DNA of 64,000 nt, from positions 1,438-65,437 of the forward strand of contig CANHQK010000007.1 in NCBI GenBank assembly GCA_947462765.1, read 5' to 3'. The position numbers and the translations under genes were made by a program. This document shows positions 2,924-58,743 of this stretch, piece by piece. The notes under the pieces are model-generated. The model had not been told where the DNA came from. It searched no databases and worked only from the letters and a program-made list of their open reading frames with translations. Position 1 is the first letter of the stretch. Each line of letters starts with the position of its first letter. Origin of the DNA: Bdellovibrionales bacterium (GTDB lineage: Bacteria; Bdellovibrionota; UBA1018; CAIMNF01).

Positions 2924-4480
2924 ATGACTCAGCCTTCCACGACCGTTCTGAAAGAGCGTTCCCGTCTTGCCGAACTTGGCGGGGGACAAGCCCGGATCGA
3001 GAAACAGCACCAATCCGGAAAACTCACCGCCCGGGAACGGATCGATCTCTTACTCGATCCCGGAAGTTTCGTGGAGCTCGACAAATTCGTCACCCACCGC
3101 TGCACAGACTTCGGGATGCAGGACCAGAAGTTTCTCGGGGACGGTGTCGTCACCGGCTACGGAACCATCGCAGGCCGCAAGGTTTGTGTATTCTCCCAAG
3201 ACTTCACTGTTTTCGGAGGTTCTCTTTCGGGTGCCCATGCTGCGAAGATCTGCAAGGTCATGGATCTCGCTCTCAAGACCGGAGTGCCCCTGATCGGTCT
3301 CAATGATTCCGGCGGAGCCCGGATCCAAGAAGGGGTGGAGTCCCTCGGTGGATATGCCGAGATCTTCTGGCGTAACGTCCAGGCCAGCGGGGTGATTCCG
3401 CAAATCAGCCTCATTCTCGGACCCTGTGCCGGCGGCGCCGTTTACTCTCCCGCGATGACCGATTTCATCGCCATGGTCGAGGGCTCATCCTACATGTTTG
3501 TGACGGGTCCCGATGTCATCAAGACCGTCACCCACGAGGAAGTCACCAAAGAAGACCTCGGTGGTGCCGAGACCCATGCCTCCACGAGTGGCGTGTGTCA
3601 GTTGGTTTATCCGGATGAGCGGGCCATGTTCGAGGGTGCGCGCCGTCTACTCGGCTTCCTGCCATCGAACAATCTTGATCCAGCTCCGCGCAAAAAGTCG
3701 AATGACGCGAACGACCGGATCTGTGCGCGTATCCGTGAGGTCCTTCCCGATGTCTCGACCAAACCCTACGACATGAGGAATATCATCGAAGACGTCGTCG
3801 ATTATGGCGAATTCCTCGAAGTGCATGCGACCTATGCTGCCAATATCGTCGTCGGATTCGCCCGTCTCGGCGGTCAGTCGGTCGGGATTGTCGGCAATCA
3901 GCCTGCCCATCTTGCCGGATGTCTCGATATCGCCGCATCATCGAAAGCGGCCCGATTCGTTCGCTTCTGTGATGCCTTCAATATTCCGCTCGTGACTTTC
4001 GTCGATGTCCCCGGGTTTCTTCCCGGTACTGCCCAGGAGTACGGCGGGATCATCCGTCACGGCGCCAAGCTCCTTTATGCTTTTGCCGAGGCGACTGTTC
4101 CGAAGCTCACGGTGATCACCCGCAAGGCCTATGGCGGGGCTTATGATGTGATGGCATCGAAGCACATTCGCGCCGATCTGAATCTGGCCTTTCCCGATGC
4201 CGAGATCGCAGTGATGGGCCCTGAAGGGGCGATCAATATCCTCTACCGCAAGGAAATCCAGGAGGCGGAGTCCAAGGGGACTCTCGAGTCCACTCGCGCA
4301 GGGCTGGTGGCTCACTATAAAGAGACCTTCGCCAATCCTTACAAGGCAGCCGAGCTCGGCTACCTTGACGAGGTGATCGAGCCCGAGCTGACCCGAACCC
4401 GGTTGATCCAGGGCCTGTCATTGTTGGCCGGGAAGCGCGAAGCGGGTCCGAAGCGCAAACACGGCAACATTCCGCTCTGA
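2924..4480 (+). CDS. pccB: Acyl-CoA carboxylase carboxyltransferase subunit (propionyl-CoA carboxylase beta chain / methylmalonyl-CoA carboxyltransferase)
   Basis: Strong family signature in translation ([20 protein letters not shown], two carboxyltransferase halves, ends KRKHGNIPL). Start moved to the internal ATG at 2924 (MTQPSTTV); the upstream 100 nt of the ORF is Arg-rich leader. Confidence 0.9.
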
Positions 4481-4493
4481 ACGGGAGGCATCG

Positions 4494-6041
4494 ATGAAAT
4501 TCCAGGTAAAACCCAGGGACCCAGTTCTTATTGCCAATCGGGGAGAGATCGCCATCCGGATCGCCCGGACTGCGCGCATGCTCGGATTTCCGACCGTGGC
4601 GGTGTATTCCGAAGCTGACCGGTATTCCGAGCACGTGAAGGCCTGCGACCGTGCGGAGTTCATCGGAGCTCCCGAGCCGAAGTCGAGTTACCTCGTGGCA
4701 GATAAAATCATCGCAGCCGCAAAGAAGCACGGAGCGAAGTACATCCATCCAGGTTACGGATTTCTCTCCGAACGTCCCCACTTTGTTGAAGCAGTGGAAG
4801 CGGCAGGGCTCGTTTTTGTCGGACCTTCGGCCGAATGCATGCGCGTGATGGGTGACAAGATCGAAGCCCGGAGAACCGTGGATCGTCTCGGCGTGCCTCG
4901 AGTGCCCGGCAGCCCCGGTGCGGTGAAGAATGCCGAGGAGGCCCTCGCCTTCGCCGAGAAGGTGAAGTTCCCCGTATTGCTGAAGGCTGCAGCCGGTGGT
5001 GGGGGCAAGGGCATGCGTCGGGTCGACAGCGCTCCTGAGCTGATGGCGGCTTTCGAGTCCGCCTCGCGCGAGGCATTGAGCGCATTCGGCGATGGCTCGA
5101 TGTATGTCGAAAAATACATCCTTGAGCCACACCATGTGGAGATCCAGGTGTTCGGCGACGGCAAGGGCGGAGGCATCCACCTCGGGGAACGCGAGTGTTC
5201 CATTCAACGTCGGCATCAAAAAGTGTGGGAGGAGTCCCCGGCTCCGATTCTCGAGACCCATCCCGAAACCCGCGCCAAGATGTTCGAGTGTGCGGTCAGG
5301 ATCACCCGTGAAATCCGCTATGCGGGAGCTGGAACTTTTGAATTCATCGTCGATGGGGAAGGCGAGTTCTACTTTTTGGAGATGAACACCCGCCTTCAGG
5401 TGGAGCATCCCGTGACCGAGTGGGTGACCGGTCTCGATTTGGTGGGGATGCAATTGTTGCTCGCCTCCGGGGAGCTCGAGCTCCCGAAGCAGGACTCCAT
5501 CACCCGGAACGGTTCCGCCATCGAAGTCCGCATTTATGCCGAGGATCCGGAGACCTTTCTTCCGGCACCCGGGAAAATGGGCCGGATTGTCCAGCCGAAC
5601 GGTCCCTTTCTCCGGTGGGACTCCGCTTTTGAGACCCAAGGAGAAGTGGCGATGTTCTACGATCCGATGATCGCCAAGCTTTCGGTTTGGGGACGCAATC
5701 GCGATGAAGCGGTCGCTCGCATGCGGGTGGCCCTCGATGAATTGTCGATCGAGGCTCCGAAGAGCTCCTCGGGCGAACTCAAGGGTTCTCTCAGAACCAA
5801 TGTCACCTTTCTTCAACGATTGGTCCGGTGTGCCGATGTGATCGCAGGTCGGACCACCACCGACTTGATTCCGCGGAATCCGAATTTGACCCGGCCTCAG
5901 GAAGATGGAGAGACCGACCTGGACACCGCTCTTGCGCTCGCGCTCTTGCGTCTGACCGAAGGGAGCGATTCGGTTGAGCCGGCTTCGGGTGAGGGTTCAG
6001 GAGCCTGGAATATGCGCTCCAAATGGGAGGCGCTCAGATGA
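4494..6041 (+). CDS. accC: Biotin carboxylase subunit of acyl-CoA carboxylase
   Basis: MKFQVKPRDPVLIANRGEIAIRIARTARMLG opening, ATP-grasp motifs and a biotin carboxylase C-terminal domain (MIAKLSVWGRNRDEA). 515 aa with a C-terminal linker. Confidence 0.9.
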   Translation: MKFQVKPRDPVLIANRGEIAIRIARTARMLGFPTVAVYSEADRYSEHVKACDRAEFIGAPEPKSSYLVADKIIAAAKKHGAKYIHPGYGFLSERPHFVEAVEAAGLVFVGPSAECMRVMGDKIEARRTVDRLGVPRVPGSPGAVKNAEEALAFAEKVKFPVLLKAAAGGGGKGMRRVDSAPELMAAFESASREALSAFGDGSMYVEKYILEPHHVEIQVFGDGKGGGIHLGERECSIQRRHQKVWEESPAPILETHPETRAKMFECAVRITREIRYAGAGTFEFIVDGEGEFYFLEMNTRLQVEHPVTEWVTGLDLVGMQLLLASGELELPKQDSITRNGSAIEVRIYAEDPETFLPAPGKMGRIVQPNGPFLRWDSAFETQGEVAMFYDPMIAKLSVWGRNRDEAVARMRVALDELSIEAPKSSSGELKGSLRTNVTFLQRLVRCADVIAGRTTTDLIPRNPNLTRPQEDGETDLDTALALALLRLTEGSDSVEPASGEGSGAWNMRSKWEALR

Positions 6042-9716: not shown

Positions 9717-10160
9717 ATGATGAAGATCCTGACTTTGCTGATGGTGAGTTCTGTTGTGTTGGCCTGGTTTGTGACCCCCGCTCGGGCGAGCTCTGTGGAT
9801 GTAAAATCCTGTCTGAGGCAAGCCCTTTCAAAAGAGCACCCTCTTTATCAAGTGCCAGAGTTCGAGGGCAAGGATGGTTACTCCAGGTACCTGGTACTCC
9901 TCTGTAATGGAACCGCGGCCAAGGATCTTTACTCGGCAATCAAGGACCCGGCGGCCCCCGGGGAGTGGTCGGGAAAGACCCGGGGCGAGGTGAAGTTTTT
10001 TGGTGAGACGGGCGGGGATTCAGCCTGCTACCACATCACGCGGAATCAAGAAGGCGATCCGGTGAGCGAGTACAATTGCTCGATCCGACTCAGTATCGCC
10101 ACACGGCTCCTCGGAAAGACCCAGACCGGAGAGATGACTTCCTTCAGAGTGAAGGAGTGA
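9717..10160 (+). CDS. Secreted hypothetical protein
   Basis: Signal peptide MMKILTLLMVSSVVLAWFVTPARA, mature domain of about 125 aa with 4 Cys. Confidence 0.5.
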   Translation: MMKILTLLMVSSVVLAWFVTPARASSVDVKSCLRQALSKEHPLYQVPEFEGKDGYSRYLVLLCNGTAAKDLYSAIKDPAAPGEWSGKTRGEVKFFGETGGDSACYHITRNQEGDPVSEYNCSIRLSIATRLLGKTQTGEMTSFRVKE

Positions 10161-12323: not shown

Positions 12324-13891
12324 TCGATCGTCGCGGGGGGCTTGGAGGTGATGTCGTAAGTCACTCGATTGATACCCCGTACCTCATTGCAAATCCGGGT
12401 CGAAACACGTCCGAGAAATCCGAGATCGAAGGGATAGAAATCCGCGGTCATTCCATCCTGGCTCGTGACAGCGCGGAGGGCCACGACCTTGGCATGGGTC
12501 CGACCGTCGCCCTGCACGCCGACGGTTTTCACCGGAAGCAAAACGGCCATGGCCTGCCAGATCTTGGGATAGAGGCCTTCTTCCCGTAGCATCTGGATGA
12601 AAATCTCATCTGCAGCACGGAGGAGATCGGCGTTCTCTTTGTTCACTTCACCGATGATCCGGACGGCCAATCCCGGCCCGGGAAAAGGATGCCGGGAGAT
12701 GAAGCTTTCCGGAACTCCGAGCGTGCGTCCGATTTCCCTGACCTCATCCTTGAACAGGTCCCGGAAGGGCTCGATGAGCTGGAATCGCAGGTCCTTCGGC
12801 AGCCCCCCCACATTGTGGTGGGACTTGATGGTGTGCGAGTGGGAGGTTCCAGTGCCTGACTGTGGGGCGGGAGAGCTTTCAATGACATCCGGATAAAGTG
12901 TGCCTTGAACGAGAAAGGCGGGCTTCACGCCGATGAGGCTCTCAATTTCGGTGGCTGCATCATCAAAGACTCCGATGAACTCGGCTCCGATGATTTTGCG
13001 CTTTTTCTCCGGATCCTCGACCCCTGCGAGTTTCTTAAGAAAACGCTCTTCCGCATTCACCCGCATCACGGGCAAATGCAGTCCTTCGGTGAATAGCTTC
13101 ATCACCCGATCGCCTTCTTGATAACGGAGCAGCCCGGTGTCGACAAAAACGCAGTGGAGCCGGTCGCCGATCGCACGATGAACCAAAGTGGCGGCCACAG
13201 TCGAATCCACCCCGCCCGAAAGGGCACAGAGCACGTGGGCGTCTTCGGGCACATTCGCCCGGATTTTGGCAATCTGCTCTTCGATCACGGAACTCATCTT
13301 CCAGTCGGCCTCCAGTCGGGCACAGCCTTGCAAAAAATTGCGCAGGATTTGAATCCCATGTTCGGTGTGGGTCACTTCAGGGTGCAGTTGGAGTCCATGC
13401 CAAGCGCGGGACTCATGAGAGATCCCTGCAACCGCTCCCTCGACGCTTTCAGCAGACAGACGATAACCGGCCGGAAGGCGCGTGGTCTCATCACCATGGG
13501 ACATCCAGGCTTCGAACTCACGGATTCCCGAGAACAATGGGGATTCGCCGAGCGTGCGCACTTTCATCCGTCCGTATTCGCGTTTGTGAGCCGGGCGGAT
13601 CTCACCATGTCCCTGTTGGACCATGAGCTGCATCCCGTAACAGATCCCGAGCATGGGTAAGTTCGATTCCGCGATATAGTCGAAGAATCCCTCAGCGGGT
13701 TGCGGGCTTCCCGTTTCATAGACCGAGGCGGGGCCACCGGACAGGATCACGGCCTGGGGCCCAAATTCACGGATTCTCGAAAGCGGGGCGCTCCCCGGCA
13801 ATACGAAGGAGTAGTATCCGAGCTCCCGCATCCTGCGGGCAATGAGCTGGGTGAACTGGGAGCCGAAATCGAGAATCAGGATTTTGTTCAT
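12314..13891 (-). CDS. guaA: GMP synthase (glutamine-hydrolysing)
   Basis: MNKILILDFGSQFTQLIARR opening, GATase plus ATP-pyrophosphatase domains, ends EWE. Confidence 0.95.
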   Translation of the reverse strand: MNKILILDFGSQFTQLIARRMRELGYYSFVLPGSAPLSRIREFGPQAVILSGGPASVYETGSPQPAEGFFDYIAESNLPMLGICYGMQLMVQQGHGEIRPAHKREYGRMKVRTLGESPLFSGIREFEAWMSHGDETTRLPAGYRLSAESVEGAVAGISHESRAWHGLQLHPEVTHTEHGIQILRNFLQGCARLEADWKMSSVIEEQIAKIRANVPEDAHVLCALSGGVDSTVAATLVHRAIGDRLHCVFVDTGLLRYQEGDRVMKLFTEGLHLPVMRVNAEERFLKKLAGVEDPEKKRKIIGAEFIGVFDDAATEIESLIGVKPAFLVQGTLYPDVIESSPAPQSGTGTSHSHTIKSHHNVGGLPKDLRFQLIEPFRDLFKDEVREIGRTLGVPESFISRHPFPGPGLAVRIIGEVNKENADLLRAADEIFIQMLREEGLYPKIWQAMAVLLPVKTVGVQGDGRTHAKVVALRAVTSQDGMTADFYPFDLGFLGRVSTRICNEVRGINRVTYDITSKPPATIEWE

Positions 13892-42419: not shown

Positions 42420-42599
42420 GTCTCATTACCCTATGCGGTTTTTTCTCCGGTCGCGACTGAAATTCTGTCTGGATTTTGGACAGCTGTCAGGTTCCATCGG
42501 AGGTGGGAAGTCGACCGTTGCGGAGGAGTTCCCCCATCGTGCAGGCGTTTCTCGAGAGGTGTCGGGGAGTTGCTGGGGTTCTGACTGCGGTGCTCGCCT

Positions 42600-42615
42600 T
42601 GGCACATCCTCTGCA
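42600..42615 (+). promoter_or_regulatory. Sigma-54 (-24/-12) promoter candidate: TGGCAC-N5-CTGCA
   Basis: TGGCACatcctCTGCA has exact consensus GG/GC spacing. It sits 64 nt upstream of the ATG at 42679; RBS GGAGGA at 42671. Confidence 0.5.
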
Positions 42616-42678
42616 AGGTTAGGAGGCAAGCGGTACGTCGAGTGGAAGTTGAGAGAATGAGAACAGTTCGGAGGACGT

Positions 42679-42864
42679 ATGAAAATCATCACTATTTTGG
42701 CCCTTTTTACAGCATTTGCATCTCCTGCCATCGGAGGGGTGGTTTCCAGTAAGCAATCTGGAAAAGCTCACTGCACCAAGAATGAACAGGATCAGCATTT
42801 CAAGTTGGCCGCAGGGTCGGGTGCTCAAGTGACCAAAGCGACCCATTCAGGGTCAGGCCGCTGA
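42679..42864 (+). CDS. Small secreted peptide (61 aa), paralog A
   Basis: Signal peptide MKIITILALFTAFASPAIG. Mature region ...SKQSGKAHCTKNEQD...GSGR. Good RBS. Confidence 0.45.
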   Translation: MKIITILALFTAFASPAIGGVVSSKQSGKAHCTKNEQDQHFKLAAGSGAQVTKATHSGSGR

Positions 42865-46290: not shown

Positions 46291-46314
46291 GTTCCGGTTT
46301 TGTCATGAGGAAAG

Positions 46315-46339
46315 CCCGGGTCAATACGATTGACCCGGG
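46315..46339 (-). terminator. Hairpin downstream of lon (11-bp perfect stem CCCGGGTCAAT / ATTGACCCGGG, 3-nt loop)
   Basis: Located 30 nt after the lon stop on the minus strand. Followed by CUUUCCU rather than a clean U-run. Confidence 0.45.
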
Positions 46340-46368
46340 CTCCCTGGATTGAGTACAACCTGCCGGTT

Positions 46369-48849
46369 TTAAGCGGCACGCTTCGAGGATTTGGCAACCG
46401 CAGGTTCGGCTGCGGCAACCGGTTTCTGTTTCTTTGCTTTTACCGGGCGGGTCTCGTGAGTCTCGCCACCTGCACCGGGGAGGTTCCCTTCGATCGGGAA
46501 AACCTTTTCGGTCAAGGCCACTTCGAGCACTTCGTCGATGGATTTCACCGGAACGAAGTTGAGGTGCTTGCGGTACTCTTCGGGGATCTCTTCCAGATCT
46601 TTCCGGTTTTTCTCCGGAATGATGATGGTCTTGATTCCGTGTCTCATCGCGGCGAGGGATTTCTCCTTCAGTCCGCCGATCGGGAGTACCCGGCCGGTCA
46701 GGGTGATCTCACCGGTCATCGCCACATCCTTACGGACCGGGATTCCAGTCAAACGGGAGATCATGGCGGTGGCCATGGTGATCCCGGCTGAAGGGCCGTC
46801 CTTGGGGATGGCGCCCTGAGGGAAGTGGACATGGATGTCGGTTTCGCTCAGAACATCGGAGTTGATTCCGAAGTCCGCTGCGCGCCACCGGATCAGGCCG
46901 AGAGCGGCCTGGGCCGATTCCTTCATCACATCGCCGAGCTGGCCGGTGAGGAGCATGCCTCCCTTACCGCGGGTGGTTGCGGTCTCCACATAGAGGATTT
47001 CGCCACCTACCGAGGTCCAGGCGAGTCCGGTCGAAATGCCGACCTCATCCTTTTCCTGCTCGTCTTCGCGGGAGTAAACCGCTGGTCCGAGGAATTTGGC
47101 AACCAGTGCGGGATCGATCACGGTGGTGTCGGTCTTGCCTTCGGCCACCAGGCGAGCGGTTTTCCGGCAAACGGTTCCCACCAGGCGCTCGAGGTTCCGC
47201 AGCCCGGCTTCACGGGTGTAGTTCTCGACAATCGCACTGATCCCTGCATCGGTGAACTCGATTTGATCCGAGGTCAGACCATTCTCAAGGATCTGCTTTT
47301 CGATCAAATACTTGCGGGAAATGAAGTACTTCTCTTCCTGCGTGTATCCGGAAAGCTGGATCACTTCCATCCGGTCACGGAGGGGTGCCGGAATCTGCTC
47401 GAGTGCGTTACAAGTGGTGATGAACATGACATTGGTCAGGTCGATCGGCACATTGAGGTAGTGGTCGCGGAACGCGTAGTTCTGTTCCGGATCGAGAACC
47501 TCAAGCAATGCAGCCGAAGGATCGCCTTTGTAGTCGGTTCCCATTTTGTCGAGCTCGTCCAGGATGAAGACCGGGTTGTTGGTTCCCGCTTGCTTCAAGC
47601 CTTGAATGATACGACCGGGAAGTGCGCCCACATAGGTGCGGCGATGCCCGCGGATCTCGGCTTCATCCTTCACGCCCCCGAGGGAGATCCGGACGAATTC
47701 ACGTCCGAGCGCCTTGGCGATGGACTTACCGAGCGAGGTCTTACCGACACCCGGAGGACCCGAGAAGCACAGGATCGGCCCCTTCATGTTGTCCTTTTTC
47801 AGTTTACGGACCGCGAGGAATTCGATGATCCGTTCTTTGATCTTGTCGAGCTTGTAATGGTCGTCATCCAGGATCTCCATGGCGTGGTCGAGATCGAGAT
47901 TATCGACAGAGGCCTTACCCCAAGGGGTATCGGTCATCCACTCGATGTAAGTCCGCATCATGGAAGCTTCAGAACTCTCCGGATGCATGCGCTCGAGACG
48001 CTGAAGCTGTTTCATGGCTTCTTGCTCGACGTTCGCCGGCATCTTGGCGTTCATGATCTTCTCGCGAAGCTCGTTGATTTCTTCCGCTTTCGGATCGTTA
48101 TCGCCGAGTTCACTCTTGATCTGCTTCATCTGTTCGCGGAGGAAGTACTCCTTCTGCGATTTGCTGATCTCATCCTTGGTCTGAGACCGGATTTTGGCCT
48201 GAATGCTCAGGACTTCGGTCTCCTTGGTGAGGATCTCGTTGATCTTCTGGAGCTTCACGAATGGATCGTGGATTTCGAGCACATCCTGGGCCGTGCTGAC
48301 CTTCAGTCCGAGGTTGGAGGCGACGAGGTCCGCCATACGGCTTGGCTCGGTGATGTTCTCGAGAACCATCATGATGTCAGGGGCAAGAACCTTGCCGAGG
48401 CTGATCATCCGCTCGATCTGCTCCTTGATGGTGCGCATGAGGGCTTCGGACTCGGCCTTCTTTTCGTTGGCGACTTCCTGAACCTGTTCCACTTGCACTT
48501 CGTAAAACGGAGCGGTCTGGGTGAATTTTTTGACACGGGCTTTGCACAGGCCCTGGGTCAGGATTTTGATCCGACCGTCGGGGAGCTTGCGCATGCGCAT
48601 GATCATGGCGACGGTTCCGGTTTCGTAGATTCCGTCCGGAGTCGGTTGTTCGTCCGCGATGTTCTTCTGTGAAGAAAGAAAAATCAGGCGGTCGGTTTTG
48701 GAAAGCGCTTCTTCCACGCTACGGATGGAAGAATCACGACCCACGAATAAAGGAATGATCATATAGGGAAATACAACAATATCCCGTACAGGAAGCATCG
48801 GTAGTGTTTGTGGGATTTCAATCTGTTCGCCGTCGTAGTTAGTTACCAT
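46369..48849 (-). CDS. lon: ATP-dependent Lon protease
   Basis: LON N-terminal domain, AAA+ module (GPPGVGKTS), Ser-Lys protease domain (DGPSAG). Confidence 0.95.
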
Positions 48850-48943
48850 TTACCCTCCAACAGGTTGTACTCAAGGAACAGTTCGGAGAGCCGGGAGGAA
48901 TGCTTTAGGGATTTGTTTTTACTTTGTTTTTAAACCAAATCAG

Positions 48944-49951
48944 TCAAGTATTCTGATGGGCGGTGAGGTGATCCGCCAAGGCTTGCAGGGCCGGCGGGAG
49001 GGGGGCTTCAAAGCGGAGCTCCACACCCGTAACCGGATGCCGGAATCCGAGAATACGGGCGTGCAGGGCCTGCCCGGGAAGGGCTTTTACTGCGCGCTGG
49101 ATTTCGAGAGGGAGTTGCTTCCATTTGGCTTGAGTATCGGTGGGTGTCCCGTATACCGGGTCACCCAGCAAGGAATGGTGAAGGTGAGTGAGGTGGACGC
49201 GCACCTGATGCGTCCTCCCGGTCATGAGTCGGGCCTCGATCCAGCTGGCATAGGGGGATTTTCCCGCAACCGAATACTCGCTGATCTTTCGGAAAATCGA
49301 TACGGATTTTCGTCCATTTTCAACATTCACAGCCATTTTTTTGCGATCTTGCTGGCTTCTACCGATTGTCGATTCGAAGCGGAAATCCCCTTCCCAGCGT
49401 GGAGATCCGTAGCAGAATGCCCAATACCGTCTTTCGATATCGTGACGGGCGAAGAGAGCGGCGAGTCCCGAATGGGCAGCGTCTGTCTTACTGACCACCA
49501 GAGCTCCGCTCGTGTCCTTGTCGATCCGATGAACGATGCCCGGACGGAGCACTCCCCCGATGCCGCTCAGGTCCTTGATCCGGTACAGGAGCGCGTTCAC
49601 CAGCGTGCCTGACCCCTGGGTCTCCGAAGGGTGGACGGTGAGTCCGGGCTGCTTGTTCACGACCAGCAGATGTTCGTCTTCGAACAGGACGTCGAGGGGA
49701 ATGTTTTCCGGGAGGACATCCAAAGGGGCGGGTTCCGGGATCTCGATGATGATTTGAGTGCCGGGCTCCAGGCGGTCTTTGCCCCGTACGGGAATTCCAT
49801 TCGAGACCACCCGGTCGGATTCCATGAGTCGCTGGAGTTGCGAACGGGAGAGCGAAGGGGCCCCTTCCTCCTCTTCGAGGAGTGAAATCAGGGCTTTGTC
49901 AGCCCGTTCCGTCAGGTTCTCCGGGACGGTAATAGTCCACTTTCGACTCAT
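48944..49951 (-). CDS. rluD: RluA-family pseudouridine synthase with S4 domain (RluD-like)
   Basis: HRIDKDTSGALVVSKTD catalytic motif. Confidence 0.85.
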   Translation of the reverse strand: MSRKWTITVPENLTERADKALISLLEEEEGAPSLSRSQLQRLMESDRVVSNGIPVRGKDRLEPGTQIIIEIPEPAPLDVLPENIPLDVLFEDEHLLVVNKQPGLTVHPSETQGSGTLVNALLYRIKDLSGIGGVLRPGIVHRIDKDTSGALVVSKTDAAHSGLAALFARHDIERRYWAFCYGSPRWEGDFRFESTIGRSQQDRKKMAVNVENGRKSVSIFRKISEYSVAGKSPYASWIEARLMTGRTHQVRVHLTHLHHSLLGDPVYGTPTDTQAKWKQLPLEIQRAVKALPGQALHARILGFRHPVTGVELRFEAPLPPALQALADHLTAHQNT

Positions 49952-57285: not shown

Positions 57286-58743
57286 GTGGCCATGATTGAA
57301 CTCGCGCGTTTTTCAAATCCAGGTCTCGGCTTGGCTGCCCTGTTGGCCTATTTTGTAAGTCTGCTCATCCTTGCGTTTTACCGAGCCCGTTCGGCCACCC
57401 TGTCGGATTATTACATCGGGAGCCATGATTCGACCTGGTGGCTCATCACTCTCGGAATGATCAGCGATTCGGTCTCAGGAGTGACTTTCGTCTCAGTGCC
57501 TGGATCGGTTTTTTCCCAGGAGTATTCCTATTTTCAGATCGTGCTCGGTTATTTCCTCGGATACCTGGTCATCACCACAGTGCTTCTGCCGCTCTACTAC
57601 CGGAGGAATCTGATTTCCATCTACTCCTACCTCGGCGAGCGCTTCGGCGTTCCCGCCCAGAAGACCGCCTCCTTGCTCTTCATCGCCTCGCGGACTTTCG
57701 GTTCAGCGGCCCGTCTCTACATCTCGGTCATGATCCTGCACCAATGCCTGCTCGGCGGATTGGGCCTCAGTCCGACAGTTTCATTTGCACTCGCGATGGC
57801 CCTGATTGTTCTCTATACCTACAAGGGCGGCATCAAGAGTCTGGTCTGGACCGAGGCCTATCAGTCTGTCATCCTTCTCGGTTCCGTCCTCTTCTTGTTT
57901 GTTGCTCTTTGGAAGTTTTCACCCGATCCGATGAAAGCGATCACAGCACCCCGGATCTTCTCATGGGACCCGATCAAGCCCGATTTCTTCCTGAAGTCCC
58001 TTTTTGGCGGCATGCTGATCACCAGCTCCATGAACGGACTCGATCAGAACATCATGCAAATGAACCTAAGTTGCCGGAGCCTCAAGGAAGCACAGAAAAA
58101 CATGTTTACGCTCGCATTTGTCATGGTCGCGGTGAATTTCGTCTTCATGGCTCTCGGAGCACTGACCCGGGAAGCCTATGCGACTGGAAATCTGGTTATT
58201 CCCACCTTGCCGGGCGGAGGTGTGGCGGCCGACCAGGTTTTGCCGGCACTGGCTCTCGGTAGCCTCGGTACGGGTGCGGCGATGATGTTTCTGATCGGCC
58301 TATCTGCCGCGACCTTTAGCAGCGCCGGCACCATCCTCCCTGCGATCGCGTCCTCGATCGAAATCGATTTGCTTCCTGAGCGCTTGAAGGACCGGATTCC
58401 TGTCCGTCTGATTCATGTTCTGGCCGCCGTGGTCATCCTGCTCTTGATCCTCGTGATCCATGCACTCGAAACCCGCTCGCTCATCGATCTGGTGCTTCGT
58501 TGCTCCGGCTATACATACGGTCCCTTGATTGGACTGTACGGCATCGGGATTTTCACCGCTTGGAGGCTTGAGTCCCGCCGGGTTCCCGCACTCTGTCTCG
58601 GAGCGATCGCCTTGACAGCCATCCTTGATTTGAACAGTGCCAGTTGGTTCTCCGGATACCGTCTGGGCGTAGAGTTGATTGCCGTCAATGCCATGCTGTT
58701 CTTGACTCTCGCGTTGGCCTTCGGGAAAAAGCGGAGCGTTTAG
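57286..58743 (+). CDS. Sodium:solute symporter family transporter
   Basis: About 13 TM helices, SSF N-terminal pattern DYYIGSHDSTWW. Confidence 0.8.
   Translation: MAMIELARFSNPGLGLAALLAYFVSLLILAFYRARSATLSDYYIGSHDSTWWLITLGMISDSVSGVTFVSVPGSVFSQEYSYFQIVLGYFLGYLVITTVLLPLYYRRNLISIYSYLGERFGVPAQKTASLLFIASRTFGSAARLYISVMILHQCLLGGLGLSPTVSFALAMALIVLYTYKGGIKSLVWTEAYQSVILLGSVLFLFVALWKFSPDPMKAITAPRIFSWDPIKPDFFLKSLFGGMLITSSMNGLDQNIMQMNLSCRSLKEAQKNMFTLAFVMVAVNFVFMALGALTREAYATGNLVIPTLPGGGVAADQVLPALALGSLGTGAAMMFLIGLSAATFSSAGTILPAIASSIEIDLLPERLKDRIPVRLIHVLAAVVILLLILVIHALETRSLIDLVLRCSGYTYGPLIGLYGIGIFTAWRLESRRVPALCLGAIALTAILDLNSASWFSGYRLGVELIAVNAMLFLTLALAFGKKRSV

Follow-up and report, generated by a model that had tools for sequence, protein, structure and literature searches.

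Introduction

Why is the lon gene of an uncultured member of the Bdellovibrionota enclosed by two segments that are perfect complements of each other? The gene lies in a stretch of 64,000 nucleotides (nt; contig CANHQK010000007.1, positions 1,438 to 65,437), the whole of which is referred to here as the window; the closest relatives of its Lon protein likewise come from uncultured Bdellovibrionota. One copy of a perfect 14-nt inverted repeat is found in the lon leader and the other one between the stop codon and the terminator. An earlier note on this DNA proposed that both copies pair in the messenger RNA (mRNA), an interaction between untranslated regions (UTRs) that would control the translation or stability of a heat-shock protease.

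The core of that proposal, pairing of the lon ends as RNA, was supported by the orthologous loci compared here, while the perfection of the helix proved to be a property of the window and the heat-shock framing did not stand. What the comparison supports best is a complementarity, maintained by selection, of the first part of the lon transcript to the stretch that separates its stop codon from the terminator. Taking its cis and trans versions together, a selected pairing appears very probable. A selected, long-range, intramolecular 5′UTR/3′UTR helix in the lon mRNA, of the kind known from hbs and icaR, is the explanation that we favor, although we hold it at about even confidence.

Arrangement of the Two Arms around lon

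The features of the locus, in window coordinates, are as follows.

46369–48849, minus strand: lon coding sequence, an 826-amino acid ATP-dependent Lon protease (ATG at 48849, stop codon TAA at 46371–46369)
48857–48874, minus strand: 5′ arm, TTGAGTACAACCTG (48874–48861) plus the 4-nt extension TTGG (48860–48857)
48858–48853, minus strand: Shine-Dalgarno (SD) sequence GGAGGG, of which GGAGG is kept in all relatives
46349–46366, minus strand: 3′ arm, the extension CCGG (46366–46363) plus CAGGTTGTACTCAA (46362–46349)
46307–46340, minus strand: intrinsic terminator of lon, an 11-bp G+C-rich stem GCCCGGGTCAA/TTGACCCGGGC with a 5-nt loop (46340–46314), then TTTCCTC

Both copies of the repeat were found, with two corrections to the earlier description: the 3′ copy occupies 46349–46362 and not 46348–46361, and the 12 nt said to separate the 5′ copy from the ribosome-binding site are its distance upstream of the start codon. 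CAGGTTGTACTCAA is the exact reverse complement of TTGAGTACAACCTG (14 Watson-Crick pairs), and the proposed extension by U-G, U-G, G-C and G-C was correct, which brings the helix to 18 consecutive pairs. The duplex of the arms only has an energy of −30.9 kcal/mol. In the leader, the 14-mer is followed by TT, GGAGGG, GTAA and ATG; it ends 2 nt ahead of the SD sequence and 11 nt ahead of the ATG, and the first two G residues of GGAGGG are inside the 18-bp helix, paired with CC at 46366–46365. On the other side of the gene the layout also agreed with what had been described: the 3′ 14-mer begins 6 nt past the TAA, before the terminator hairpin, and the extended arm begins 2 nt past the stop. The gap between the 3′ arm and the terminator stem is 8 nt in the window and 0–8 nt in the relatives, and the window lon 3′UTR is about 65 nt long. 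The terminator hairpin folds much better than shuffled sequences (z = −4.2). A simple terminator scan missed it because its T run is weak; a hairpin of the same GCCCGGGTC type is present in the relatives, where the U tail is clearer. The proposed helix would enclose lon as a 2.5-kb loop.

Complementarity of the lon Ends Compared with Chance

With a 12-nt seed, 107 inverted pairs were counted in the window. Therefore, an inverted repeat carries no meaning by itself, and the exceptional part is its placement. The long pairs that were examined, such as a 21-nt pair that is 95% complementary over a distance of 3 kb (10045–10065 with 13102–13122), are apparently located inside long open reading frames (ORFs) and are probably due to chance.

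To assess placement, the last 60 nt ahead of the start codon were matched against the first 60 nt past the stop codon in each of 55 crude ORF calls from the window. The lon ends gave 14 Watson-Crick pairs, or 18 when G-U pairs were included, while none of the 54 other genes gave more than 8 Watson-Crick pairs, ruling out end complementarity as a general trait of the window genes. The runner-up, a minus-strand ORF at 42426–42731 (101 amino acids), showed a 14-nt run with G-U pairs, only 6 of them Watson-Crick. When lon 5′ flanks were combined 3000 times with non-cognate 3′ flanks from other genomes, the longest Watson-Crick run was 10, and the chance of a 14-mer match in one 60 × 60 nt comparison is about 1e-5 per gene.

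A dispersed repeat, with many copies in the genome, would have spoken against the proposal according to the earlier note. Allowing up to 2 mismatches, TTGAGTACAACCTG has 2 matches in the 64-kb window against 0.17 expected, a count that was reached in none of 100 shuffles, and among 172 fetched loci the 14-mer was present only in lon leaders. On these counts, an intergenic element resembling repetitive extragenic palindromes (REP) or miniature inverted-repeat transposable elements (MITE) was rejected. A search with Rfam covariance models returned only a chance-level match, inside coding sequence (E = 2.3).

Conservation in the Window Clade

DNA from ten further lineages with 82–95% Lon identity was compared, and the distribution described below rests on about 25 Bdellovibrionota loci. 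Arm pairs were scored on a fixed-frame alignment of leaders and 3′UTRs. Between the −10 element and the ATG, the leaders of the relatives hardly vary. L161–L164, L166, L167 and L169–L171 have the 5′ arm of the window unchanged, and in L165 its A7 is replaced by G. The 3′ arm is kept in six further lineages, either as CAGG-NN-GTACTCAA (L163–L167, L169 and L170) or as CAGG-N7-GTACTCA (L171). The 3′UTR arms read as follows.

Window: CAGGTTGTACTCAA
L163, L164 and L165: CAGGTCGTACTCAA
L166 and L167: CAGGTGGTACTCCA
L169 and L170: CAGGCAGTACTCAA
L171: CAGG-GATCATC-GTACTCA

The fourfold-degenerate sites of lon are only 0.33–0.52 identical between lineages, which means that unconstrained sequence is essentially randomised. 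The identity of the 3′ arm between lineages is 0.88, or 0.97 without its two central bases, compared with 0.28 for the 8 nt before it and 0.41 for the 6 nt after it. These values argue that the arm is an island under purifying selection that is complementary to the leader. The conserved object is a helix in two parts, UUGAGUAC/GUACUCAA (8 bp) and CCUG/CAGG with 1–4 further pairs, separated by an internal loop of 1–2 nt, once of 2 × 7 nt; the perfect 14/18-bp helix was found in the window genome only. Throughout the window clade, the 3′ strand begins 0–6 nt past the stop codon, and the helix ends 0–3 nt short of the SD sequence or 1–2 nt inside it.

Complementary Arms with Other Sequences in Two Further Clades

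Complementary lon ends made of different sequences were found farther away. In L081, with 76% Lon identity to the window, the leader contains TTGGTTTCGGTC and the 3′UTR contains GACCGAAACCAA just ahead of the terminator. The arms of L172, which is 98% identical to L081, are TTAGTTTCGGTC and GACCGAAACTAA; with respect to L081 they show a double change from G-C to A-U. The 3′UTRs of both loci differ by an 11-nt indel beside the arm and several substitutions, yet the arms are complementary, and the G-U intermediate between the two states would still pair (−17.7 kcal/mol). In L081 as well as in L172 the arm is located about 30 nt upstream of the SD sequence.

The third clade is represented by L084 (75% Lon identity; Ga0207036_10096, approximately 2965–3000 and 5425–5460), the leader of which begins with the same predicted +1, GAGUC... 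In this locus, UUUGAGUC-A-AGCAC pairs with GUGUU-A-GACUCAGA directly ahead of the terminator. The whole 5′UTR can zip onto the whole 3′UTR through five short helices (25 pairs, −32.5 kcal/mol), including the SD sequence AAGGAGG, which pairs with CCU and AAGCC of the 3′UTR. This arrangement is an icaR-like variant of the same theme.

Helices were compared by ungapped scoring and by the co-fold gain relative to shuffles; RNAduplex on flanks of 70 × 45 nt was too noisy because the G+C-rich terminators dominate. For the null distribution, each leader was co-folded with its shuffled pre-terminator 3′UTR, using 300 shuffles per locus. The co-fold gains were as follows.

Window: −19.2 kcal/mol, reached by 0 of 300 shuffles
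L084: −16.9 kcal/mol, reached by 0 of 300 shuffles
L165: −16.3 kcal/mol, reached by 0 of 300 shuffles
L081: −15.8 kcal/mol, reached by 1 of 300 shuffles
L172: −11.4 kcal/mol, reached by 0 of 300 shuffles

The means for shuffled 3′UTRs were −4.4 to −6.5 kcal/mol, with a standard deviation of about 2.5. Co-folding of the two UTR segments, the first check that the earlier note had called for, was favorable to the pairing. The duplex energies across the arm-bearing loci range from −16 to −32 kcal/mol.

Pairing-Type Changes and Covariation

The A-to-G change in the L165 5′ arm turns an A-U pair into a G-U pair. The pair located just outside the 14-mer is U-G, U-A or C-G in 6 of 6 lineages, with C-G confined to the lineages whose leader has C. 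In L171, both half-helices are kept despite 5 extra bases between them, which form a 7-nt loop. This spacing favors an RNA structure, because an insertion of this kind would wreck a two-part protein site and only enlarges an RNA internal loop. RNAalifold recovered the helix at −19.5 kcal/mol, and 86% of the alignment cells were paired versus 28–43% when the partner strand was slid by 1–3 columns. Natural compensatory changes consist of the G-C to A-U double change between L081 and L172 and, in the window clade, of one covarying pair and one change from A-U to G-U, with 10 of the 18 pairs invariant and a shuffle control for the pairing in this clade that was not significant (198/500).

Promoter and Predicted Start of the lon Transcript

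Two further features concern the 5′ end of the transcript.

48881–48908, minus strand: FliA (sigma-28)-type promoter-like element CTAAAG-N16-CCGAAC, conserved upstream of lon
48872, minus strand: predicted transcription start, a G in third position of the 5′ arm, which would give an mRNA with GAGUACAACCUG at its beginning

The motif CTAAAG-N16-CCGA(A/T) is present upstream of lon in nearly all Bdellovibrionota relatives (L001, L002, L057, L081–L091, L116 and L161–L172). It agrees with the consensus of the mapped attack-phase promoters of Bdellovibrio bacteriovorus, TTAAG-N16-CCGATA, ascribed to sigma-28/FliA (PMC3627812). The spacing to the +1 was measured on 47 FliA-type B. bacteriovorus promoters from Table S2 of the same study, in which the sequences end at the mapped +1 (PMC3627812). 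The +1 is located 8 nt after CCGAnn in 35 of the 47 promoters and 7 nt after it in 9, and it is a purine in 45. By extrapolation from B. bacteriovorus, lon transcription is predicted to start at G 48872. A start at the third base of the arm, which is predicted for L084 too, fits the observation that the complementarity does not extend upstream of the arm or the predicted +1 in any lineage. The promoter is FliA-like and not of the heat-shock type, so that the heat-shock role assumed for lon in the earlier note is unsupported at this locus; its distribution suggests that lon is part of the FliA/attack-phase programme across the Bdellovibrionota.

A second conserved stretch was observed upstream of the FliA-like element, at 48912–48947 (minus strand), with TTGACT overlapping the rluD stop and TAAAAACAAA about 20 nt farther on. 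This stretch may serve as another promoter or as the site of a regulator; in the former case, the leader would be longer and the 5′ arm internal to it. CTAAAG-N15-17-CCGAW is matched a second time at 58294–58319 (minus strand), but this copy is inside the plus-strand ORF 57286–58743 and is probably due to chance. No antisense FliA-type promoter directed toward the 3′ arm was seen in the sequence, and none of the sigma-70-like type turned up within lon or its 3′ region.

Genes around lon and the Lon Protein

The genes in this region are arranged on one strand in the order ParA-like ATPase, DnaJ/helix-turn-helix (HTH) protein, RluD, lon and two CNNM/CorC genes, and this order is kept in relatives. 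No recombinase or mobile-element gene was found among the lon neighbors, and no terminator was seen in the rluD-lon interval. The rluD-lon-CNNM segment has a single orientation in every window-clade contig that reaches both neighbors. In the more distant L168 and L172, lon has other upstream genes, but those called share its strand. A cassette boundary marked by the repeat, as the earlier note had considered, is at odds with this constant orientation and with the lack of a recombinase nearby.

The Pfam domains LON_substr_bdg, AAA, Lon_lid and Lon_C were found on every Lon homologue. Beyond the protease domain, the Lon proteins have a Lys/Ala-rich C-terminal tail of 40–50 residues (window codons 46372–46510). 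A C-terminal -AA was present in 63 of 120 homologues (KAA in 26, RAA in 14), recalling ssrA-like C-terminal degrons.

Comparison with Known mRNA End-to-End Pairings

The known self-pairings between the 5′ and 3′UTR of a bacterial mRNA are few. RNAIII/hld, icaR and hbs all belong to Firmicutes, and each was found experimentally in one species and is poorly conserved. In Bacillus subtilis hbs, 14-nt fully complementary segments located just upstream of the terminator pair with −19 kcal/mol, and the interaction has been validated (PMC5737220). The window lon shares with hbs the length of the complementarity, its position relative to the terminator and a similar energy (PMC5737220): complementary 5′UTR and 3′UTR segments are part of one transcription unit (48857–48874 with 46349–46366), and the 3′ segment lies 8 nt upstream of an intrinsic terminator. 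Like the lon element, that of hbs is not conserved in close relatives. The hbs 5′ segment is found inside a structured leader, downstream of two hairpins, where it masks an RNase Y site, whereas that of lon is predicted to comprise the 5′-terminal nucleotide and to abut the SD sequence (PMC5737220). The gene, the phylum and the set of RNases are also different. While hbs was proven by compensatory mutagenesis (PMC5737220), the evidence for lon is comparative sequence.

In Staphylococcus aureus, icaR mRNA pairs its 3′UTR with its own translation-initiation region (PMC3868564). This interaction is as patchy among related species as that of lon: Staphylococcus epidermidis is devoid of the motif and uses a small RNA (sRNA) instead. 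The icaR mRNA has a UCCCC anti-SD motif in a 390-nt 3′UTR, and its duplex is an RNase III substrate, whereas the lon 3′UTR is of about 65 nt and the UCCCC motif was not found in that of the window. The window clade pairs only 0–2 SD bases; L084 is nearer to icaR in this respect. A third comparison is offered by OppZ and CarZ of Vibrio cholerae, autoregulatory sRNAs derived from 3′UTRs (Hoyos et al. 2020, PMC7398697, as summarised in PMC7821165). Their seed is beside their own terminator and complementary to the translation-initiation region of the same operon, an architecture with which the lon ends are compatible; they differ in that RNase E processing precedes their action in trans, which involves Hfq, and in that they trigger Rho termination in the operon (PMC7821165).

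At the sequence level, the lon element has the features of a long-range 5′UTR/3′UTR interaction and not the anti-SD motif specific to icaR. It is best read as a further case of a known but rare kind of mRNA end-to-end pairing. Stem-loops at the 5′ terminus, such as that of the ompA leader, stabilise bacterial mRNAs by leaving the terminus paired, with few or no unpaired 5′ nt. They are local hairpins, whereas the partner strand of lon is 2.5 kb away in the 3′UTR; a paired 5′ terminus, predicted in the case of lon, is common to both.

A Closed lon mRNA as the Favored Explanation

In the favored explanation, the 5′ strand of the helix would be the very start of the lon mRNA, made from the FliA-type promoter, and the 3′ strand would come from the stretch that runs from the stop codon to the intrinsic terminator hairpin. 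Formation of the helix would close the lon mRNA on itself. In the closed state the 5′-terminal nucleotide would be paired, and the helix would reach or enter the SD sequence and adjoin the terminator hairpin. The 5′ end would be hidden from 5′-end-dependent decay and binding of the 30S subunit would be hindered, and in this way Lon synthesis and lon mRNA lifetime would become linked. Translation of lon itself should open the helix: given the size of the ribosome footprint, the 3′ strand, only 0–6 nt past the stop, is inside the footprint of a terminating ribosome, which should therefore unwind it. The intramolecular form is favored because the arrangement is like that of hbs, pairing starts at the predicted 5′-terminal nucleotide and both strands are on one RNA. 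What the sequences show is the complementarity, its placement, its conservation where the background is saturated and substitutions of the RNA type; the transcription start, the intramolecular form of the pairing and the direction of its effect are inferred.

Several observations weigh against this explanation. The leader element CTTGAGTACAAC is kept in L161/L162, L168 and L089, which have no 3′ arm and whose 3′UTRs are unrelated. Their Lon identities to the window are 95% (L161/L162), 90% (L168) and 85% (L089), and L161/L162 is the closest relative and the sister of the window in the Lon tree. The complementarity that the earlier note had suggested looking for around lon in related genomes was present in six further lineages and is lacking in these. 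Their co-fold gains are at background level, and no second copy of the 3′ complement was found within 2–3 kb of lon in L161, L162, L168 or L089, so that a replacement acting in trans from this neighborhood was rejected. In most other Bdellovibrionota loci and in about 100 lon loci from other phyla, the end complementarity did not exceed chance. The lack of a 3′ arm in the closest relative and in others indicates that the helix is dispensable, not essential, and the persistence of the 5′ element there indicates that it has its own role, at least as the initial transcribed sequence. Judging from these loci, the interaction is restricted to clades and can be lost.

Within the window clade, the number of invariant pairs and the outcome of the shuffle control make the case mainly one of conservation and not of covariation, and in 5 of 6 lineages the central pair does not form. 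For this organism, both ends of the transcript as well as the pairing are predictions. Read-through from rluD or a second promoter would bury the 5′ arm in a longer leader, for much of the time translating ribosomes would keep both ends separate or the helix open, and the sequence fits a stabilising, hbs-like helix as well as a repressive or destabilising one like that of icaR.

Alternative Explanations

The same pairing could act in trans. The lon 3′ end, consisting of the seed and the terminator (about 60–70 nt), would be set free or build up as a 3′UTR-derived sRNA and pair with the leaders of other lon mRNA molecules, exerting negative autoregulation like OppZ and CarZ. All the comparative pairing evidence fits trans as well as cis, and the single-stranded 3′ arm is immediately followed by a strong terminator hairpin, to which most relatives add a U tail, as is usual in 3′UTR-derived sRNAs. 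The target adjoins the SD sequence, and autoregulatory 3′UTR sRNAs are documented (PMC7821165, PMC7398697). However, the seed is located 0–6 nt past the stop, which leaves little space for a processing site; a sigma-70-like promoter that could produce such an RNA was not found in the region; and pairing that starts exactly at the predicted 5′-terminal nucleotide is seen more typically in end protection than in the targeting by sRNAs. We regard this explanation as possible but unlikely.

Another option is a cis helix that is mainly repressive or destructive, occluding the ribosome-binding site and being cut by RNase III as in icaR (PMC3868564), or that excises lon from a rluD-lon-CNNM transcript as the processing stems of ribosomal RNA do. 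The helix reaches 2 nt into the SD sequence in the window, an extra GGGU/GCCC stem covers the SD sequence in L165, that of L084 pairs with the 3′UTR, and a terminator between rluD and lon was not seen. Nonetheless, the helix halts 1–3 nt before the SD sequence in most window-clade relatives and the arm of L081 and L172 is about 30 nt away from it, a UCCCC-type anti-SD motif is lacking, and the most conserved half-helix is at the 5′ end and not proximal to the SD sequence. In addition, helices of 12–18 bp with loops are short for RNase III. A mainly repressive or destructive function thus seems rather improbable.

The repeat could also be a feature of the DNA, either as two binding sites of one protein or as the inverted repeats of an invertible lon cassette. 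It brackets the whole gene, its 5′ copy lies between promoter and ribosome-binding site, and a "compensatory" change in an inverted repeat equally amounts to one substitution made in both copies of a DNA site. On the other hand, the three clades use unrelated sequences, the spacing of the half-motifs goes from 2 to 7 nt in L171, there are G-U-type differences and covariation outside the conserved motif, and the arms of relatives differ by 1–2 mismatches. Neither the neighbors (ParA-like, DnaJ/HTH, RluD and two CNNM genes) nor the constant orientation of rluD-lon-CNNM in the window clade suggest recombination. An inverton or a DNA-binding site was rejected on spacing, mismatches, neighbors and orientation, and we consider a DNA-level role very improbable. 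The operator of HrcA, known as controlling inverted repeat of chaperone expression (CIRCE), has the consensus TTAGCACTC-N9-GAGTGCTAA, an inverted repeat found in promoters or leaders. It was also rejected: by inspection, GAGTAC-AA resembles one half-site only, and there is no partner 9 nt upstream.

Finally, chance complementarity to an independently conserved leader, combined with conservation of the 3′ arm for some other, unconnected role, would agree with the retention of the 5′ element in relatives without a 3′ arm, with the little covariation within the window clade and with the many feature types scanned at the first reading (multiple testing), but a match with a probability of about 1e-5 per gene is hard to join with an independently conserved 3′ island, and two further clades have their own complementarity, which makes it highly unlikely.

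Significance for lon and the Bdellovibrionota

A more speculative proposal, which at this point is doubtful, is that a closed-loop lon mRNA made in the attack phase (FliA) of these predatory-type bacteria would be a nuclease-resistant, poorly translated, stored message, and that the helix would act as a translation-sensing switch, which at least three clades of the Bdellovibrionota would have acquired by repeated evolution or by co-evolution. Each finished round of translation would reopen the 5′ end and the SD sequence, and expression would be self-reinforcing once begun; otherwise, the message would stay silent and stable.

A selected helix in the lon mRNA would be the first 5′/3′UTR mRNA pairing in the Bdellovibrionota, as well as the first one for Lon, the central protease of quality control; a literature search of incomplete coverage returned no report of such an interaction for lon or for this phylum. 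The case brings natural comparative evidence to this class of interactions, in the form of a conserved island in a randomised 3′UTR, a compensatory change from G-C to A-U and three clades with different arms. It stands out for the predicted location of the 5′ terminus in the helix, for the short distance from the stop codon to the 3′ strand and for its return, with other sequences each time, in three clades. Such interactions could be sought systematically in metagenomes, by looking for genes whose ends show conserved complementarity. If the predicted transcription start is right, the 5′-terminal nucleotide of the lon mRNA is in the helix, and 5′-end protection, ribosome access and translation termination would be coupled in this gene.

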